From the IMG/VR virus record IMGVR_UViG_3300042542_004852: a stretch of DNA of 64,000 nt. One strand, written 5' to 3'. Shown piece after piece: positions 12,931-64,000 of this stretch. Positions within the stretch are counted from its first letter, which is position 1, and each line of letters starts with the position of its first letter. The notes beneath the pieces were generated by a model, which worked only from the letters and a program-made list of their open reading frames with translations, did no database searches and was not told the origin of the DNA. The translations under genes and the position numbers were made by a program. Source of the stretch: a virus.

Positions 12931-12945
12931 TGTAAAAACATGAGG

Positions 12946-15327
12946 ATGAAAAAACTTAACTTGACCCCGCGTGTCAAAAAAGCTCTGGAGCAAGCCCAAG
13001 AACTTGCGAAGTCTTTGGGGCATGAGAGAATCAATTGCGCACACATGTTTAAGGCCATCATGGAATTAGATTATCCTATGTTCCGAACTGTTTTGCGTCC
13101 ATTCATGGTTAATCAGTATGAATTGGCAGAAAAGATTATTCCTTTTGTAGAAGAGAATCATCCAGACTTCTTTAAAAAGAAAGCTAATGAAAAGACTTGG
13201 CATAATGAAATTGAAGAAATACTTAAATTCGCAAACGAAACAAGCGGCAATTTAAAACAGGAATACATTGGCGTAGAGCATATCTTATATGCTTTAATAG
13301 TCACTTCTCCAACAGTGCGTGGATTTTTGGAACACAAACATTTTCCAATTGATGATTTTGCCGAATTATTAATTAATCATTTGGACCCAAATTCTGTCAA
13401 GAAAAAAGTCGAAACAGAACCCGAAACTCAAGAAGACACTGCTATCAAGCAGACCTATGTTAAAAAATACTGCACAAATCTAACCGAACTAGCCACAAAT
13501 AATAAATTAAATAATGTCTATGGCAGAGATGTTGAAATTGCAACTCTTGCAGAGACTTTCTTGAGAAAAACAAAGAATAATATTATTCTCATTGGCGATC
13601 CTGGCGTAGGCAAAACAGCCATCGTTGAAGGTTTGGCTTACAAGATTATTGTTGACGAAACCACTCCTCTTTTAAAGAACAAGATTTTGATTTCATTGAA
13701 CATGGCATCCATGATCGCTGGCACAAAATATCGCGGCCAATTTGAGCAAAGATTCCAAGGGCTTCTTGATGAACTAAAAGAAAATAGCAATTTTATCATT
13801 TTCATTGATGAAATTCACACTATGATTGGTGCTGGTAATGGAGAGGGAGCACTAGATGTGGCAAACATGCTCAAACCTGCTTTGGCTCGCGGAGAAATCA
13901 CTTGTATTGGCGCTACAACACATGCTGAATACAAGAAGCTGTTTGAGAAGGACGGTGCGTTAAAACGCCGCTTTGAAGCTATTACAATTGAAGAGCCAGA
14001 CAATCTTCAAACCAAAAAGATTCTCATGTCCTCAAAAAAACAATTTGAAGACTTTCATGGAGTGGTTTATTCAGAACAGATTATTGAAGACATTATTTTC
14101 CTTTGTGAGAAATATGTTCCTTACAAAAAATTTCCTGACAAAGCTTTCGACATGCTGGATTTGCTAGGATCAAGAGTAAAAATTGCTAACTTTGCTATTC
14201 CTAAAAAAATCAAGAATCTCGAAAAGAAAATCCAAAAGAACATCAACAACATCAAGAATCCAAAACACTCAAACGAGTGTGAAAAAATGATTGAGGAGTT
14301 TGGCCAAAAACTAATTGAATGGTCTGAAAAAGGTCGCAAATTTATTCCAATCTCAACAGATCATATCATTGATGTTTTTTCTCAAAAGCTAGGAATCAAT
14401 AAAAATAAAATTATTTTCGCAAATAATCTGCAAAATGAAGACATTTTCGAGACTCTTAAAAATGACATTTTTGGACAAGACGAGGCTTTGGTAAAAATTA
14501 GCGACATTCTAATCTGCTCAAAAGCTGGTCTTAAACCCAAAAACAAACCAATGGGCAAATTTTTATTTGTTGGCCCAACAGGAGTTGGCAAAACTTGGAC
14601 AGCCAAGTTGATCGCCGAAAAGTTCTTTGGCAACGAAAAGAGTTTGTTGAAACTTGACATGAGCGAGTATCAAGAATCAAGCTCAATCAATAAATTAATT
14701 GGTTCTGCTATTGGATATGTAAAATGTGAAGAAGGCGGCATACTAACAGAGTTCGTTAGAAATCGACCAAACAGCGTAATTCTTTTTGACGAAATTGAAA
14801 AGTCCCATAGAGACATTAACAATTTACTGCTTCAAATTTTGGATGATGGCTATGTGACTGACAGCATGGGTCGCAAAATTGATTTCTCAAACTCCATCAT
14901 TATTCTCACAAGTAATCTTGGCCACGAACAAGTTTCCAAAGCATCAATGGGTTTCTTGCCAGTTCAAGATGATCAAGATTCTAAATATAAAAAATCAATC
15001 GAGAACTTTTTTAAGCCAGAATTTCTGGCCAGATTAGACGATGTTGTTGTATTTAATAAGATTTCGAAGAATGAGTTTAAGAAAATATTTGATAAAATGA
15101 TTCAAAAAACATGCGAGTCTCTTCATCAAAACAATAAAAAAATTCACATCTCGGAAGACACAAAAGAGTTTTTATTGAAAAAGATTGAAGAAAATGGCAA
15201 CAACGCTCGATCCATTCAAAAAGTCTATCGTCAATATTTGGAAATTCCATTGGCTAAATTTATGCTTCAAAATCCCAATCCAGAAATTTCTGCAAAAATC
15301 TCTGATGCCAAGGTAATATTTGAATGA
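12946..15327 (+). CDS. ClpA/ClpC-like double AAA+ ATPase
   Basis: Clp-N repeats, GDPGVGKT, FIDEIH, GPTGVGKT, DMSEY, LFDEIEK, MGF loop; start 12940 or 12946. Confidence 0.92.
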   Translation: MKKLNLTPRVKKALEQAQELAKSLGHERINCAHMFKAIMELDYPMFRTVLRPFMVNQYELAEKIIPFVEENHPDFFKKKANEKTWHNEIEEILKFANETSGNLKQEYIGVEHILYALIVTSPTVRGFLEHKHFPIDDFAELLINHLDPNSVKKKVETEPETQEDTAIKQTYVKKYCTNLTELATNNKLNNVYGRDVEIATLAETFLRKTKNNIILIGDPGVGKTAIVEGLAYKIIVDETTPLLKNKILISLNMASMIAGTKYRGQFEQRFQGLLDELKENSNFIIFIDEIHTMIGAGNGEGALDVANMLKPALARGEITCIGATTHAEYKKLFEKDGALKRRFEAITIEEPDNLQTKKILMSSKKQFEDFHGVVYSEQIIEDIIFLCEKYVPYKKFPDKAFDMLDLLGSRVKIANFAIPKKIKNLEKKIQKNINNIKNPKHSNECEKMIEEFGQKLIEWSEKGRKFIPISTDHIIDVFSQKLGINKNKIIFANNLQNEDIFETLKNDIFGQDEALVKISDILICSKAGLKPKNKPMGKFLFVGPTGVGKTWTAKLIAEKFFGNEKSLLKLDMSEYQESSSINKLIGSAIGYVKCEEGGILTEFVRNRPNSVILFDEIEKSHRDINNLLLQILDDGYVTDSMGRKIDFSNSIIILTSNLGHEQVSKASMGFLPVQDDQDSKYKKSIENFFKPEFLARLDDVVVFNKISKNEFKKIFDKMIQKTCESLHQNNKKIHISEDTKEFLLKKIEENGNNARSIQKVYRQYLEIPLAKFMLQNPNPEISAKISDAKVIFE

Positions 15328-54325: not shown

Positions 54326-55367
54326 CTTCTTTTGAAACACCAAGAACTCTCGCTTTCCATTCGCCCATGCTCTCTAGTCTATTAGCTTCTTCGCTAATTA
54401 TCTTCTTTTGCATCTCTGCAATCTTGACCATGTTTTTGCGCTCTTCCTCATCCTGAAACAACTGAACCAAAGAAATAATTGATGCATTTTCTTTGTATTT
54501 ATTTTTCATTCTTTCGGCGCGATCACCTTGTAGTTTTTTAGTGAGATTTTCAATGCGCCCTTCGCATTGATGGTATTCGCTGGACTTTGCCTTGATGATT
54601 TCAGCAAGCCTCATGGTTATATCTTGTTGATCATCAATCTCATCAAATTGATCGTTAAGTTTATTCAAGTGCTTGCCAACAACTTCCAAGTTGATGATTT
54701 CTTTGCACACGTTCATGTAAAGATTCAGTTCATCAGAGGATAGGTCTGGCTTGTCCCAAGTTAAACGAATAAATTCTTCTTCAAAAAGAATGCGATCTTT
54801 TTGCGACAAGTAATTATTCATGATTGTCACAAAGCGAGAATTAGAAAGATTAATAGTGAGCTTATCAATGCAAATCTTATACTGGCGAGAAATTTTGTTT
54901 TCGTCTAGAGTCAAACCTGTAGCATCATTGATCTTTTTTAAGACGCGGCTAGAAGCTTTTGGCGGAATGTACTCTGTGAGCAGTGCAGACTCAGAATTAC
55001 CAACAAGATCAGGGTTCACTAGCCTAATGTAGTCAAGAATCGCTCTTTGTTCCATGCCAAGCTTTTTAACTTCGCGATCTTGGAAAATTAATTCAGCAAT
55101 GCGAAAAGTGGACGTTCCAGCTTGACTCTGCAAAAGAGCAAACTGTTTTTGAGCGTCATTTAATTCAATGCTTTCGCTCTTTTCTTTTTTTGTGGTTGTG
55201 AAGGAGTAATTGTTATCAATTAAAAATTGCCTAACCAAACGGCCTTCTTTTTTTCTTCCATCCAAAGACTGATCATTGAAACACCTTTTAGTGAGTTCGT
55301 TGAGATCAGTGATTTGCAAATAGTTTTCGCTAATGAATTTTTTTTGCTCTTCTGTGAGATCGCTCAT
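54315..55367 (-). CDS. Hypothetical protein, candidate terminase small subunit
   Basis: HTH-like N-terminus plus coiled coil, upstream of terminase. Confidence 0.45.
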   Translation of the reverse strand: MSDLTEEQKKFISENYLQITDLNELTKRCFNDQSLDGRKKEGRLVRQFLIDNNYSFTTTKKEKSESIELNDAQKQFALLQSQAGTSTFRIAELIFQDREVKKLGMEQRAILDYIRLVNPDLVGNSESALLTEYIPPKASSRVLKKINDATGLTLDENKISRQYKICIDKLTINLSNSRFVTIMNNYLSQKDRILFEEEFIRLTWDKPDLSSDELNLYMNVCKEIINLEVVGKHLNKLNDQFDEIDDQQDITMRLAEIIKAKSSEYHQCEGRIENLTKKLQGDRAERMKNKYKENASIISLVQLFQDEEERKNMVKIAEMQKKIISEEANRLESMGEWKARVLGVSKEDVI

Positions 55368-56050
55368 AAAATGTCTTTATTCTTTAAGATTTCAACAGCC
55401 TTGTCTCGAAAAAGCTTTTTGAGATTTTTGATTTGCTTGTAGCCGATTTTACGATTTTTTTCGCTGCTGCGATAGCCTAAAAATTTTGCAACATCTTCGT
55501 CCGACATCTTTTCGAAGAAAAGCATTTGGTAGGCGCGAAAATAGTTTTCTGACAATACTTTTTTCATCTCTTGATTAAGCAAAGAGATTGATTGAGAATA
55601 GTCTAGTTGATGCAGAGGCATCTCTTCAACTTCGCGAGAGTGATTTTCCAACTCTAGCGGAAGCTTGATGTTATAACCGTATCTCTTGCTCTTGGACCAA
55701 ACAGCATACTTTTCACAAGAGGAGTCTTGTGATCCGCTGATGTTTAGAGAACAAAAATCATCGCCCAAATTGTAAGGGCAACTCATGCACGGTTTAACGT
55801 AATTTGTGTAATTGTTGCGAATAAGATTTCGAATCTGATTAGCAATGACGCGAGAAAGCCAAGGTTCAAGAGCTTTCTTCTGGTCCCACATGTTCCACTT
55901 CTTGAAAATATGTAATTTAATGATTTGCTCAACGTCTTCGAAAGACATCCATTTTAATACGTTAAGCTGCCATTTGTTTCGGCGCTTTCGTATTTCGATT
56001 TCAATGATTGGTAGCTTTTCCTCGAAAAGAATTTTTTTACGTCTTGGCAT
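55364..56050 (-). CDS. ECF-like sigma factor with Cys-rich insertion
   Basis: Region 2 FEDVEQ...WD...LEPWLSRVIANQIRNLIR; region 4 LSENYFRAYQMLFFEKMSDEDVAKFLG; CMSC...C...C between them. Confidence 0.75.
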   Translation of the reverse strand: MPRRKKILFEEKLPIIEIEIRKRRNKWQLNVLKWMSFEDVEQIIKLHIFKKWNMWDQKKALEPWLSRVIANQIRNLIRNNYTNYVKPCMSCPYNLGDDFCSLNISGSQDSSCEKYAVWSKSKRYGYNIKLPLELENHSREVEEMPLHQLDYSQSISLLNQEMKKVLSENYFRAYQMLFFEKMSDEDVAKFLGYRSSEKNRKIGYKQIKNLKKLFRDKAVEILKNKDIL

Positions 56051-59971: not shown

Positions 59972-60193
59972 ATGAAAAGCATTCAATTCAAAACCTTCAC
60001 GCTCTACATTCAATTTTCAGGCTTTAGCCAATCAAAGAAACACATTCACCTTCCCTTCTATGTCAAGGCATGGCGCAAGCATCCAGCCTATGACAAGCAT
60101 CTTCAAATTGCCATCTCTAACGCTGCGGTCAGCACTGGCCTTTCTCCCTCTACTAAGCCTGTCTGTTACTCGCTACTTGCGGGAATGTGCTAA
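59972..60193 (+). CDS. Small early protein
   Basis: Own promoter. Confidence 0.65.
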   Translation: MKSIQFKTFTLYIQFSGFSQSKKHIHLPFYVKAWRKHPAYDKHLQIAISNAAVSTGLSPSTKPVCYSLLAGMC

Positions 60194-60616: not shown

Positions 60617-60659
60617 CTAAGCCTAGGCTAGGAAACTCTTAAGCCCCTTAAGTGGGGAG

Positions 60660-60710
60660 CCTAAGAACTTTACCTAGGCCAGGGGCCTTGGGGTAGGTAA
60701 AATTCCTAAG
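60660..60710 (+). repeat. 51-bp four-box dyad element, copy 1
   Basis: CCTAAG-aacttta-CCTAGG...GGTAGG-taaaatt-CCTAAG; TTTACCTA-17bp-TAGGTAAA. Confidence 0.9.
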
Positions 60711-60854
60711 ACTCTAAGCCTAGTTCACCTAAGACAATCCCTTGCCTTTCCCTAAGACGATTCTCTTGTCAAGAGAAACAAAAGAAATCTTTTCTGCAAT
60801 CTTGGCATGATAATTTCCATAAATGAAAAAGATGAAAACAAAACAAAAAAGAAT

Positions 60855-61203: not shown

Positions 61204-61446
61204 ATGAAAAACAAAATCCCCATGCAAGAAAACATCACAATCTCCCGCGAAACTTTTTCCACTCTGCTTTCTTTCGCTAAGCGCGAGCAGACAATCTGCG
61301 ACAACAACGCCAGAAACGCCCTTAAGAAAGTCGAGGAACTCCCGAACGACATTTTCTGGCAGGACTCGGTAAACTTCTGGAGGCAGGAAAGCCAGAACGC
61401 CCAGAACACCTACACAAAAGCCCTAGAAGAAGCGCAGACGCTCTAA
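61204..61446 (+). CDS. Small helical early protein (FWRQE)
   Basis: Start at ATG 61204 or 61222. Confidence 0.7.
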   Translation: MKNKIPMQENITISRETFSTLLSFAKREQTICDNNARNALKKVEELPNDIFWQDSVNFWRQESQNAQNTYTKALEEAQTL

Positions 61447-61454
61447 TCGGGCCT

Positions 61455-61505
61455 CCTAGGTAATTTACCTAGGGGAAGGCCCCTGGCATAGGTAAAATCC
61501 CTAAG
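61455..61505 (+). repeat. 51-bp four-box dyad element, copy 2
   Basis: CCTAGG-taattta-CCTAGG...CATAGG-taaaatc-CCTAAG. Confidence 0.9.
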
Positions 61506-61528
61506 ACTCTTACCCTAGGAGTCTTACC

Positions 61529-61890: not shown

Positions 61891-61915
61891 AGGGCGGCGA
61901 AAGCCGCCCTTTTTT
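61891..61915 (+). terminator. Intrinsic terminator
   Basis: AGGGCGGC-GAAA-GCCGCCCT-TTTTT. Confidence 0.9.
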
Positions 61916-61925
61916 ATATACATTG

Positions 61926-61976
61926 CCTAGGAGGTTTACCTAGGCCGCGCCCCCTGGGATAGGTAAAATCCCTAAG
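61926..61976 (+). repeat. 51-bp four-box dyad element, copy 3
   Basis: CCTAGG-aggttta-CCTAGG...GATAGG-taaaatc-CCTAAG. Confidence 0.9.
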
Positions 61977-61990
61977 ATTTTCGCCTTAGG

Positions 61991-62050
61991 TAAGAAGTCT
62001 ATTTACTATTAGGCGCTTTAGTATTTACTATTAGGAGATTTCGAGTTTGC
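61991..62050 (+). repeat. 60-bp upstream module B, copy 2
   Basis: See 61529-61588. Confidence 0.85.
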
Positions 62051-62079
62051 TATTTAGGGAATAAAAAATCATTTTTTTC

Positions 62080-62107
62080 TTGCGCGGACGAGGTAAACCG
62101 CTATTCT
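62080..62107 (+). promoter_or_regulatory. Early promoter, 16-bp spacer
   Basis: TTGCGC-16-TATTCT. Confidence 0.7.
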
Positions 62108-62115
62108 ATAGCCCT

Positions 62116-62247
62116 ATGAACGAAATGAACTTCTCCACTACCGCCGAAGATATGCACGCCGCCGCCGCTGAGTTCAACGAGTTTTACGACTTGTTGCGCG
62201 AGGAGGCATGGGAGCATCAAGAAGCTTCTCTCACGCAAAACAACTAA
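62116..62247 (+). CDS. TAEDMHA-family acidic peptide 3 (43 aa, not in ORF track)
   Basis: MNEMNFSTTAEDMHAAAAEFNEFYDLLREEAWEHQEASLTQNN. Confidence 0.75.
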   Translation: MNEMNFSTTAEDMHAAAAEFNEFYDLLREEAWEHQEASLTQNN

Positions 62248-62258
62248 ACTTAAATCTT

Positions 62259-62456
62259 ATGATGACACCCGACGAATATGATCCCCCCTCTTATGGGGGC
62301 ACTCCCACGCAGGAAGCCCATGCAGAAATGACTCTTTTGTTTGGCGCGGAAAAACCAACTCGCGCTTGGATTCTTACGGACTTTGATGTGTGGGCACCGA
62401 ATCCTTTTTACTGTGGGCCTCCACAGCCTCATCCAGAAGACGATGACCATTGGTGA
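62259..62456 (+). CDS. Small phage protein (AWILTDxDVW..NPFY.GPP.PHPE family)
   Basis: Start at ATG 62259 after the preceding stop. Confidence 0.75.
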   Translation: MMTPDEYDPPSYGGTPTQEAHAEMTLLFGAEKPTRAWILTDFDVWAPNPFYCGPPQPHPEDDDHW

Positions 62457-62464
62457 GCATAAGC

Positions 62465-62515
62465 CCTAGGAGAAATACCTAGGGCACGCCCCTTGGCGTA
62501 GGTAAAATCCCTAAG
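62465..62515 (+). repeat. 51-bp four-box dyad element, copy 4
   Basis: CCTAGG-agaaata-CCTAGG...CGTAGG-taaaatc-CCTAAG. Confidence 0.9.
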
Positions 62516-62585
62516 AGAAAACAAAAAAACTTTCCTGCAATCTTGGCATGCTAATTACTAGAATAAAAACAAGTTAAAAAAGGCA

Positions 62586-62613
62586 TTGCGCGAATCTCTT
62601 TTTCTGTTATCTT
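62586..62613 (+). promoter_or_regulatory. Early promoter, 16-bp spacer
   Basis: TTGCGC-16-TATCTT with TG. Confidence 0.7.
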
Positions 62614-62619
62614 GTGGCC

Positions 62620-62748
62620 ATGAAGAAAATCACATTTCGCAAGCCAAAAATCCTCTCCTTCCGCCTCTCCACTCGCAAAGTCGGCGGCATTCGTTTCGTG
62701 CGCGTGGGAAAACTTGTCTTTTCTTTCTGCGTGTCAAAAAAGGCTTGA
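62620..62748 (+). CDS. Very basic 42-aa peptide (not in ORF track)
   Basis: MKKITFRKPKILSFRLSTRKVGGIRFVRVGKLVFSFCVSKKA; ATG 7 nt after the -10. Confidence 0.7.
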   Translation: MKKITFRKPKILSFRLSTRKVGGIRFVRVGKLVFSFCVSKKA

Positions 62749-62772
62749 CTTCTCTCCTTTCTCGCTTATCTT
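62745..62772 (+). promoter_or_regulatory. Early promoter, 16-bp spacer (exact duplicate of 62940-62967)
   Basis: TTGACTTCTCTCCTTTCTCGCTTATCTT. Confidence 0.8.
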
Positions 62773-62778
62773 ATCCCC

Positions 62779-62943
62779 ATGAACGAAGAAATCTTCACCA
62801 CAATCTTTATCTCACTTACGCAACGCTTTGACCTTGCCTGCAAAGAAGTTGCCGAGTCGAAAAATGAAAAACTCAAAGACTACTGGCGGGAAGAAGCGGA
62901 CAAAGCTCTTCAAGCTCGTCGATATATTGTAGAAAAGATTTGA
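62779..62943 (+). CDS. Small helical protein, 54 aa (not in ORF track)
   Basis: MNEEIFTTIFISLTQRFDLACKEVAESKNEKLKDYWREEADKALQARRYIVEKI. Confidence 0.75.
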   Translation: MNEEIFTTIFISLTQRFDLACKEVAESKNEKLKDYWREEADKALQARRYIVEKI

Positions 62944-62967
62944 CTTCTCTCCTTTCTCGCTTATCTT
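62940..62967 (+). promoter_or_regulatory. Early promoter, 16-bp spacer (duplicate)
   Basis: Identical 28 bp to 62745-62772. Confidence 0.8.
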
Positions 62968-62990
62968 TAACCCGTAACCAAAACAACACT

Positions 62991-63275
62991 ATGAAAGACC
63001 TCATCACCAAAGAAAACCTAGTCGCCCTTCTTCGTTCTAAGAAAGAAGCAGTCATCGAAGCCCTGAACAATAAACACGTTGTTTACCTGAACGAAGGAAA
63101 TTCAAGCGTCAAAACCAACGGCGTGCGCAGTTTCACCATCAAGGACATTGAAGGCGTGAACACTGGCAAGGCTGGCCGCACCTACATCACGGCCAAGGTC
63201 ATCGACCATGATGACGGCGATGCCGAAAAATATCGTTCCCTTCACATCGCGGGCCTTGAACTCGCTTGGGAATAG
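62991..63275 (+). CDS. Small early protein, possible SH3/WYL-like beta fold
   Basis: MKDLITKENLVALL...RTYITAK...KYRSLHI. Confidence 0.75.
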   Translation: MKDLITKENLVALLRSKKEAVIEALNNKHVVYLNEGNSSVKTNGVRSFTIKDIEGVNTGKAGRTYITAKVIDHDDGDAEKYRSLHIAGLELAWE

Positions 63276-63281
63276 TCTTTT

Positions 63282-63345
63282 GAAGAGAGACGGCAATCGG
63301 AAAATGCCCCTAATAGGCTAGTAGGTTCAAACCCTACCCTCTTCT
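63282..63345 (+). ncRNA. tRNA-like element lacking an anticodon loop
   Basis: Acceptor GAAGAG/CTCTTC, D arm GGCA-ATCGGAAAA-TGCC, stub CCT-AAT-AGG, T arm GTAGG-TTCAAAC-CCTAC. Confidence 0.65.
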
Positions 63346-63367
63346 TTACTTTTAATCAATAAAAAAT

Positions 63368-63625
63368 ATGCTACGCCTAGAATCCTCCACTACTTCTGTA
63401 AATGCCGCTTGGCATTATCTCTTGGAAAATAAATGCAGCTTCAGCGCTCCTGTGCAAATGCTTTCTTCTCGCGCCTTGCAAAAGGCAAAGCTCAAACCCA
63501 TCGCGCCGATTGAAACCAGAGTAAAAATCCTCTCTAGGGCTAACGCTAAAAAGAAAGCCAAAACTTTCTTGCTTAAAGCAGAGGAAAAAATTTCAAACCT
63601 CGTAAAAAAAATCTCTAGGCGGTGA
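63368..63625 (+). CDS. Small basic protein
   Basis: 85-aa ORF after the tRNA-like element. Confidence 0.6.
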   Translation: MLRLESSTTSVNAAWHYLLENKCSFSAPVQMLSSRALQKAKLKPIAPIETRVKILSRANAKKKAKTFLLKAEEKISNLVKKISRR

Positions 63626-63634
63626 TAAGACAAA

Positions 63635-63671
63635 GGGGGTGGAGAGGTTAGTGTTGTTCCTCTCTGCCCCC
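63635..63671 (+). terminator. 13-bp hairpin, possible terminator
   Basis: GGGGGTGGAGAGG-11nt-CCTCTCTGCCCCC (two G-U pairs); weak U tract. Confidence 0.5.
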
Positions 63672-63679
63672 TAAGTTTT

Positions 63680-63730
63680 CTTAGATGATTTACCTAGGCC
63701 AGGCGGCCTGGGGTAGGTAAAATTCCTACG
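63680..63730 (+). repeat. 51-bp four-box dyad element, copy 5
   Basis: CTTAGA-tgattta-CCTAGG...GGTAGG-taaaatt-CCTACG. Confidence 0.85.
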
Positions 63731-63842
63731 CTCAAATGGCAAATTCCCTACCGTTTCTTAAGAAAGATGCCTAAGAAGTCTATTTAAGACTTTCCTATTT
63801 AGTATTAGGGGGTTTCGAATTTGGATTTTTATCTTTTTCTAT

Positions 63843-63870
63843 TTGACAGAAGCGCTTTTGCCTCTATAGT
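63843..63870 (+). promoter_or_regulatory. Early promoter, 16-bp spacer
   Basis: TTGACA-16-TATAGT; ATG 7 nt downstream. Confidence 0.8.
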
Positions 63871-63876
63871 AGAAAC

Positions 63877-64000
63877 ATGAACCACACATTAGAAACCGCA
63901 GGCAACCTACTCCGTCAAATCAGCGAAGAAAGCAGAGGCGTGGCCTTGACAAAGGAACAAGCGCACATTTTCAACGCAGTGTTCTACAGGGGCATGCTGG
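63877..64000 (+). CDS. Small early protein, 3'-truncated
   Basis: MNHTLETAGNLLRQISEESRGVALTKEQAHIFNAVFYRGML... Confidence 0.65.
   Translation, partial: MNHTLETAGNLLRQISEESRGVALTKEQAHIFNAVFYRGML

Follow-up and report, generated by a model that had tools for sequence, protein, structure and literature searches.

A conserved tRNA mimic without an anticodon arm at a two-gene junction of uncultured phages, and its possible role as an RNA processing signal

A 64-kb stretch of viral DNA, which we refer to in its entirety as the window, carries between two small genes a 64-nt element with the acceptor stem, D arm, and T arm of a tRNA and a 3-bp stub at the site of the anticodon arm. What use does a phage operon have for a tRNA-shaped element that has nothing with which to read a codon? 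The first-pass annotation of this DNA, made from the letters alone, described a tRNA mimic and proposed that it splits the early transcript or serves as a decoy RNA for tRNA-targeting defenses; it also named a decayed tRNA gene as an option. The features on which our analysis rests are listed in Table 1.

The window is part of the genome of an uncultured tailed phage of ~130 kb (related contigs reach 118–139 kb) and encodes a 2745-amino-acid tape-measure protein, a DNA polymerase, the large terminase subunit, and PhoH, among others. The best protein matches to the large terminase subunit share ~26–27% identity and come from Bacillus-type phages, and thus point to no cultured relative. A DNA similarity search of INPHARED (GenBank phage records) with positions 62000–64000 and with the element returned no match. 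The window also contains a GDP-mannose 4,6-dehydratase gene, a gene for a Lon-like ATP-dependent protease, and a weak match to sigma-70 region 2.

Table 1 Features of the locus, variant forms of the element, and further observations in the window and in related phages
Feature	Position or locus	Strand	Remarks
94-amino-acid gene, upstream	62991..63275	+	Stop codon 6 nt before the element; no Pfam match
85-amino-acid gene, downstream	63368..63625	+	A-rich leader at 63351-63367 (repeat family D8)
Sigma-70-like promoter	62940..62967	+	Consensus match only; repeat family D3; identical copy at 62745
Hairpin and U-rich tail after the 85-amino-acid gene	63634..63672	+	ΔG -29.9 kcal/mol; z = -4.6; 0/200 shuffles as stable
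Whole tRNA-like element	63282..63345	+	64 nt; acceptor stem, D arm, 3-bp stub, T arm, discriminator
Acceptor stem, 5′ strand	63282..63287	+	Pairs with 63339-63344; 98.6% of cells paired
D arm	63292..63308	+	4-bp stem (63292-63295/63305-63308); 9-nt loop that includes GG
Stub at the anticodon-arm site	63309..63317	+	3-bp stem, 3-nt loop
T arm	63321..63337	+	5-bp stem, canonical 7-nt T loop
Acceptor stem, 3′ strand, and discriminator U	63339..63345	+	Read from the sequence; followed by a U-rich trailer without CCA
9-nt stub form	Window and four other distinct sequences		L020 has one loop substitution
18-nt hairpin form	L098
33-nt arm form	L014, also as L105
Branched ~46-nt arm form	L013, L022, L034, L035, L115		Arm conserved in sequence across phages
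GDP-mannose 4,6-dehydratase gene	1620-2657	+
Lon-like ATP-dependent protease gene	12940-15327	+
Weak sigma-70 region 2 match	55364-56050	-
Ordinary tRNA genes in related phages	L044:1498-1574; L045:1501-1571; L052:6142-6215	-	Arg(tct) and Gln(ttg)
Type B tRNA-like RNA	L027:3294-3431	+	137 nt
Type B tRNA-like RNA	L014:3422-3523	+	101 nt
Duplicated mimic	L047:6501-6719		Run of N inside
191-amino-acid Cys-rich ORF	L048:845-1420	-	Weak HNH match, E = 0.011
Dyad repeats	60649-60723; 61444-61518; 61915-61989; 62454-62528; 63669-63743		~75 nt each; variable GC-rich core
Box repeats	61544; 62006; 63780
Promoter repeats	62579; 62738; 62933

Minimum free energy (MFE) and centroid folds of the single 64-nt sequence agree on one four-way junction. 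The sequence itself, these two predictions, and an RNAalifold analysis of relatives thus confirm the fold that had been proposed, with an acceptor stem, a D arm with a GG loop, a stub, and a T arm. All of the annotated helices stand; the gap between acceptor stem and D arm is 3 nt and not 2, one nucleotide above the canonical spacing. At position 7, A63288 faces C63338 in an A·C mismatch, and the acceptor helix is otherwise 6 bp long. A 3-nt linker separates the stub from the T stem, and base 63345 is the discriminator. The T arm fits the motif GGTTCRANYCC, which has been used for finding plant t-elements. The statement that no CCA is encoded holds for the window; trailers are U-rich in the family, and a few relatives encode ACCA.

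The fold energy of the element is ordinary (z = -1.38 alone and -0.35 with flanks). The combination of parts is not. We required an acceptor stem with at least 6 of 7 Watson–Crick pairs, a T arm that fits the T-loop consensus, and, in the D arm, a 4-bp stem and a GG loop. The window has one such set, and 200 random 64-kb sequences with its first-order composition have none. This combined pattern, rather than fold energy alone, establishes that the element is not a product of chance. Two covariance models, R1 and R2, score the window element at 95.9 and 80.6 bits, respectively. R1 also gave a 16-bit match at 60061-60121 on the minus strand; it is absent with R2, and we took it as chance.

To which class of RNA does the element belong? 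ARAGORN called no tRNA and no tmRNA across the whole 64-kb window, and Rfam 15 gave no match to the element at gathering score. The permissive mode of Rfam returned tRNA-Sec only, at 15.4 bits against a cut-off of 47 bits. ARAGORN was among the checks suggested with the original annotation. Run on the relatives as well, the two programs gave the element no tRNA or tmRNA call apart from an ARAGORN call on L014 that is discussed below. A tRNA has a 5-bp stem and a 7-nt loop with U33 and an anticodon where the element has a 3-bp stem and a 3-nt loop; we therefore rejected it as a tRNA. Its other tRNA features are present, namely the 6-bp acceptor stem with the A·C mismatch, the T arm with its consensus loop, and the D arm with GG. 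Because it lacks an anticodon arm, the element cannot decode.

We likewise rejected tmRNA, bacterial Y RNA, and protein-coding sequence as identities for the element. Pair 3:70 is A-U in all 12 variants known to us rather than the G3:U70 of tmRNA, the element is a closed 64 nt, and the tmRNA families of Rfam gave no match in gathering or permissive mode. The ends of the element form an acceptor stem and not a Ro-binding helix, the Y RNA families of Rfam do not match, and no Ro/TROVE domain (rsr) was found among the larger window ORFs scanned against Pfam and PHROGs. The length variants of the family, at +9, +23, and +38 nt, are not all multiples of three.

Three routes led to relatives of the locus: the 94-amino-acid protein (59 homologue clusters, 68–99% identity), matches in IMG/VR to exact DNA patterns, and a single pattern scan of metagenomes. 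The fetched loci were then screened with R1. In the metagenome scan, 15 of 69 matches were true members and the remaining 54 were chance matches in coding DNA. Twelve distinct element sequences were obtained, all of them on the same strand and directly after the same 94-amino-acid gene. Each locus carries one element in the window and ~267 kb of related DNA. On a 132,645-bp ENA scaffold (L047), whose upstream protein is 99% identical, the mimic is duplicated around a run of N, which looks like a scaffolding artifact rather than a tandem pair. An exact-pattern scan with both halves of the element through one genome each of 185,579 bacterial and archaeal species gave no match, and so yielded neither a host tRNA ancestor nor a prophage copy.

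In the 12-sequence alignment, which was fitted to a covariance model and so favors the structure, 99.4% of pair cells hold standard pairs, as against 37–57% when the 3′ partners are slid by 1–3 columns. RNAalifold recovered the same helices from a plain MAFFT alignment of seven variants. Both sides of a pair have changed in four cases: acceptor pair 5, where A-U became G-C in three variants, and T-stem pairs 2, 3, and 4. Three of the five T-stem pairs thus changed on both sides, with 100% of cells paired. The covariation score of the alignment exceeds those of all 500 shuffles. The check that the first-pass annotation had called for, covariation among homologues, therefore came out in favor of the fold. 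As few as four events could account for these compensatory pairs, and the support is accordingly solid and not deep. The D stem is invariant in all 12 distinct sequences and is neither supported nor contradicted by covariation, and no covariation stands behind the 3-bp stub stem.

The element is 92–94% identical between phages whose upstream coding sequences share 75–76% identity and whose downstream 250 nt share ~45–50%. This excess over the flanks, together with the compensatory changes, indicates that the folded RNA is under purifying selection. The conservation does not reflect a reading frame, since the length variants differ by 9, 23, and 38 nt. Unpaired positions are also held: the D loop varies at two positions only, and D loop, stub, and linker are almost invariant among relatives. 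On the strength of these comparisons, we regard the element as a genuine, conserved, non-decoding tRNA mimic, found so far in one lineage of uncultured phages.

Length variation in the family is confined to the anticodon position, which holds 9, 18, 33, or ~46 nt; the bare, armless form is the most widespread. None of the four forms contains a usable anticodon arm (5-bp stem, 7-nt loop). In the long form, the D loop has CG or UG instead of GG and the T loop changes at position 55, from UUC-type to UGC-type. These changes look coordinated and fit a kept 18:55 elbow contact, a suggestion only, as the loop alignment is ambiguous.

Could the element be a tRNA pseudogene that has lost its anticodon arm and is decaying? 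Its overall frame is that of a tRNA, related phages carry real tRNA genes elsewhere, and ARAGORN calls a tRNA-Glu on the 87-nt variant of L014. That call is forced, however: it depends on a mismatched stem and on a 17-nt extra region without structure, and the tRNA model of Rfam gave this variant no match. The short form persists with compensatory changes despite the divergence of the neighboring gene by 25%, no variant has a proper anticodon stem-loop, and neither half of the element was matched exactly in the 185,579 species genomes. The option of decay, which had been tied to relatives with a full tRNA at this site, thus fails on the relatives in hand, and we consider it very improbable.

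The ordinary tRNA genes of the related phages were noted on their own account. One tRNA-Arg has a T-stem sequence identical to that of the mimic, and a doubtful ARAGORN tmRNA call overlaps a tRNA-Gln. Some of these genes encode CCA and some do not; the host must therefore add CCA to the transcripts of the latter.

The slot between the two genes is not always occupied by the mimic. In L015 and L041 the same two genes flank an empty slot, which shows that the element is dispensable, and in L029-L033 and L038-L040 another gene lies downstream and the element is absent. In L027 and L028 the slot is filled by an unrelated 137-nt tRNA-like RNA whose acceptor stem differs and whose T arm is canonical. 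It belongs to a family that we designate type B, characterized by a common G/C-rich 7-bp acceptor stem, a canonical T arm, and long, odd interiors. The type B copy of L014 directly follows the mimic of that phage; it scores 32 bits with RF00005 in a genome search and receives no ARAGORN call.

This exchange of occupants raises the alternative of a DNA-level recombination joint or small mobile module, in which the RNA shape would be incidental or ancestral. The precise absence of the element from L015 and L041 and the ability of the slot to take different modules favor it. So do the direct repeats at the slot edges, a 5-nt U-rich word at both edges of the element in the window and a 6-nt repeat at both edges of the type B occupant in L027, and the HNH-like ORF that adjoins the element in one relative. 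The repeats are short, however, and fit insertion, slippage deletion, and exchange via conserved flanks equally. Loci have a single copy each, the 267 kb of related DNA show no spread, and the compensatory G-C/A-U changes indicate selection on a folded single strand, that of the operon's coding strand. We judge this alternative distinctly unlikely. The HNH-like ORF itself, found in L048 (the IMG/VR record of L009), takes the place of most of the gene that follows the mimic and may be a homing-endonuclease insertion beside it.

The position of the element suggests how it is expressed. It lies in the 92-nt spacer, on the same strand as the 85-amino-acid gene and 22 nt before its start codon; with the stop codon of the 94-amino-acid gene so close upstream, there is no room for a promoter of its own. 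The promoter at 62940 probably drives the 94-amino-acid gene, the mimic, and the 85-amino-acid gene together. The stable hairpin beyond the second gene, which a consensus scan missed because of its 11-nt loop, is likely an intrinsic terminator that closes the two-gene unit. Given promoters upstream, none within, and a terminator after the second gene, the layout implies that the element is almost certainly transcribed inside a bicistronic mRNA, as part of an early unit.

Such a location would also suit an mRNA 3′ end or insulator that works without tRNA enzymes, the junction and U-rich tail acting as a weak terminator, an attenuator, or a block to 3′ exonucleases. The consensus scan marks the T arm and the U-rich tail as terminator-like, and the element directly follows the 94-amino-acid gene in all carriers, whatever lies downstream. 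Its closing stem, however, is AU-rich and 6 bp long, its T hairpin has 5 bp with no U run directly after, and a far stronger hairpin terminator stands 290 nt downstream. A simple hairpin would be enough for this purpose, yet selection has kept GG in the D loop, a consensus T loop, and the four-way junction. We consider this explanation unlikely. Like the DNA module and the decaying tRNA, a terminator is a poorer fit to the compensatory changes and to the tRNA-specific features than readings that involve tRNA enzymes.

The acceptor/T-arm helix and the D/T elbow are what RNase P reads at the 5′ end of a tRNA, and what RNase Z or exonucleases and the CCA-adding enzyme read at the 3′ end. We propose these enzymes because a discrete RNA, or any tRNA-like effect, requires factors that read the elbow. 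For RNase P, RNase Z, and the CCA-adding enzyme it is established that the anticodon arm is dispensable (see also PMC1920247). In the phage family, only this dispensable part varies and the acceptor, T, and D arms are kept, as would be expected of a processing signal. Bacterial RNase P prefers U at position -1. All variants except one type, which has C, carry U at this position, in agreement with a candidate RNase P site, and the U-rich trailer is typical of CCA-less precursors.

We therefore favor, with a probability of roughly 0.5, the reading that the element is a tRNA-like processing (punctuation) signal that would split the message and release a small tRNA-shaped RNA. From the sequence, fold, conservation, and operon position that we observe, we infer the enzymatic steps and their consequences as follows. 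Host RNase P would cut just 5′ of G63282, and RNase Z or 3′ exonucleases would trim after the discriminator; the CCA-adding enzyme might then add CCA to the released RNA. Cuts at the element would divide the bicistronic message, uncouple the fates of its two halves, and free the tRNA-shaped RNA. The ordinary fold energy, the few events that may underlie the compensatory pairs, and the empty slots of some relatives weigh against this reading. As originally interpreted, then, the element is a tRNA mimic with an elbow and without an anticodon arm, and a processing signal fits its anatomy, given its mid-operon site, its lack of a promoter, the U at -1, and the confinement of variability to one position; on the decoy, the evidence points neither way.

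Does the released RNA have a role of its own? The near-invariant unpaired positions exceed the needs of a pure cutting signal and hint that it may, and we see a real chance that an excised RNA has a function of its own. This consideration leads to a live rival of the processing signal, namely a trans-acting, tRNA-shaped RNA cut from the mRNA. It could act as a sponge or decoy for a reader of the acceptor or elbow (an acceptor-modifying toxin, the CCA-adding enzyme, and RNase P are candidate targets) or as a scaffold that presents interchangeable arms. We hold this rival to be possible, if tentative. It would account for loop and linker nucleotides that are more invariant than cutting demands, for the alternative conserved modules of 18, 33, and 46 nt at the anticodon position, the last conserved in sequence, and for the second, unrelated tRNA-like RNA that can fill the slot.

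Several observations speak against it. Well-known anticodon nucleases could not be decoyed, and the element is unlikely to be a decoy for them, since it has no anticodon loop to bind. We saw no tRNA-related enzyme or toxin gene among the larger window ORFs scanned against Pfam and PHROGs. As antisense guides to local targets, the variable arms were rejected: they are no more complementary to the surrounding 5–6 kb of the loci in which they lie than shuffled arms are. Finally, the armless form is the most widespread. It is still more tentative to picture the tRNA chassis specifically as a scaffold, excised and stabilized by host tRNA enzymes, that displays no module or one of 18, 33, or 46 nt and acts in trans on a host factor, the 64-nt form being the bare scaffold.

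Returning to the processing signal, we find its closest counterparts in the t-elements of plant mitochondria (Hanic-Joyce et al. 1990; Forner et al. 2007, PMC1920247). T-elements are non-canonical tRNA-like folds by mRNA ends that were found via the GGTTCRANYCC T-arm motif; mRNA ends arise from their cleavage by RNase P and RNase Z, and non-templated C or CA can be added to the excised RNA (PMC1920247). Like them, the phage mimic has a well-kept T arm with this motif and lies inside an mRNA precursor beside a coding region; the anatomy of a t-element is present, with the T-arm motif, a stop codon 6 nt before the element, and a start codon 22 nt after it. The t-elements differ in being organellar and unrelated in sequence, and their cleavage has been mapped experimentally whereas that of the phage mimic is predicted. 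In the phage family, the D arm and elbow are kept, and variation is specific to the anticodon position. By this analogy, the mimic is best read as a counterpart of t-elements in functional class and not as a member of a homologous family.

Other tRNA mimics share some of these properties. MALAT1 and NEAT1 carry the tRNA-like modules mascRNA and menRNA at their 3′ ends. RNase P and RNase Z excise mascRNA, which receives CCA and does not decode. Like the phage mimic, mascRNA is co-transcribed with a longer RNA. Unlike it, mascRNA is eukaryotic and nuclear, has a small anticodon-like arm, and stands at the 3′ end of a lncRNA rather than at a two-gene junction. In the tRNA-like domain of tmRNA, too, an acceptor stem and a T arm are present, the D region is reduced, and the anticodon is absent. 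The phage mimic differs from it in having A3-U70, no tag frame, and no pseudoknots, and its halves are joined by 9 nt instead of a long body.

Bacterial Y RNAs such as YrlA, reportedly described by Chen et al. in 2014, resemble the phage mimic as non-coding tRNA mimics with D-/T-arm elbows, and some of them are encoded by phages. In a Y RNA the two ends pair into the Ro-binding helix, which takes the place of the anticodon stem, and the acceptor-like stem is closed. The phage mimic has the opposite topology, and the larger window ORFs that were scanned include no Ro (rsr) gene. In phages P1 and P7, the precursor of C4 antisense RNA is a transcript with tRNA-like features from which host RNase P releases the functional piece. 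C4 is an antisense repressor with known targets, whereas we found no target complementarity in the phage mimic family.

Cutting signals shaped like tRNAs within messages are textbook knowledge for mitochondria and are known in a few eukaryotic lncRNAs. A large IMG/VR survey of structured RNAs mentions tRNA-like candidates without a mechanism (PMC10690425). Our full-text literature search found no paper on conserved tRNA mimics without an anticodon that lie between the genes of phage operons, and Rfam 15 has no family for the phage mimic. If host RNase P and RNase Z cut here, phages would possess a simple, portable way to uncouple the genes of one transcript, and tRNA-gene finders would be systematically blind to one class of phage RNA elements. 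Should the released RNA act in trans instead, it would represent a new kind of tRNA mimic in phage–host conflict; as a scaffold, it would define a class of phage small RNA so far undescribed. The family offers a clean natural test set, in which loci that are otherwise alike have a bare element, a short arm, a long arm, or an empty slot.

The surroundings of the two-gene unit have an organization of their own. Between ~60.6 and 64 kb, small-gene cassettes follow one another in an array that also carries repeated promoters, boxes, and five dyad repeats. The dyad repeats delimit the cassettes, and the box and promoter repeats lie alongside them.
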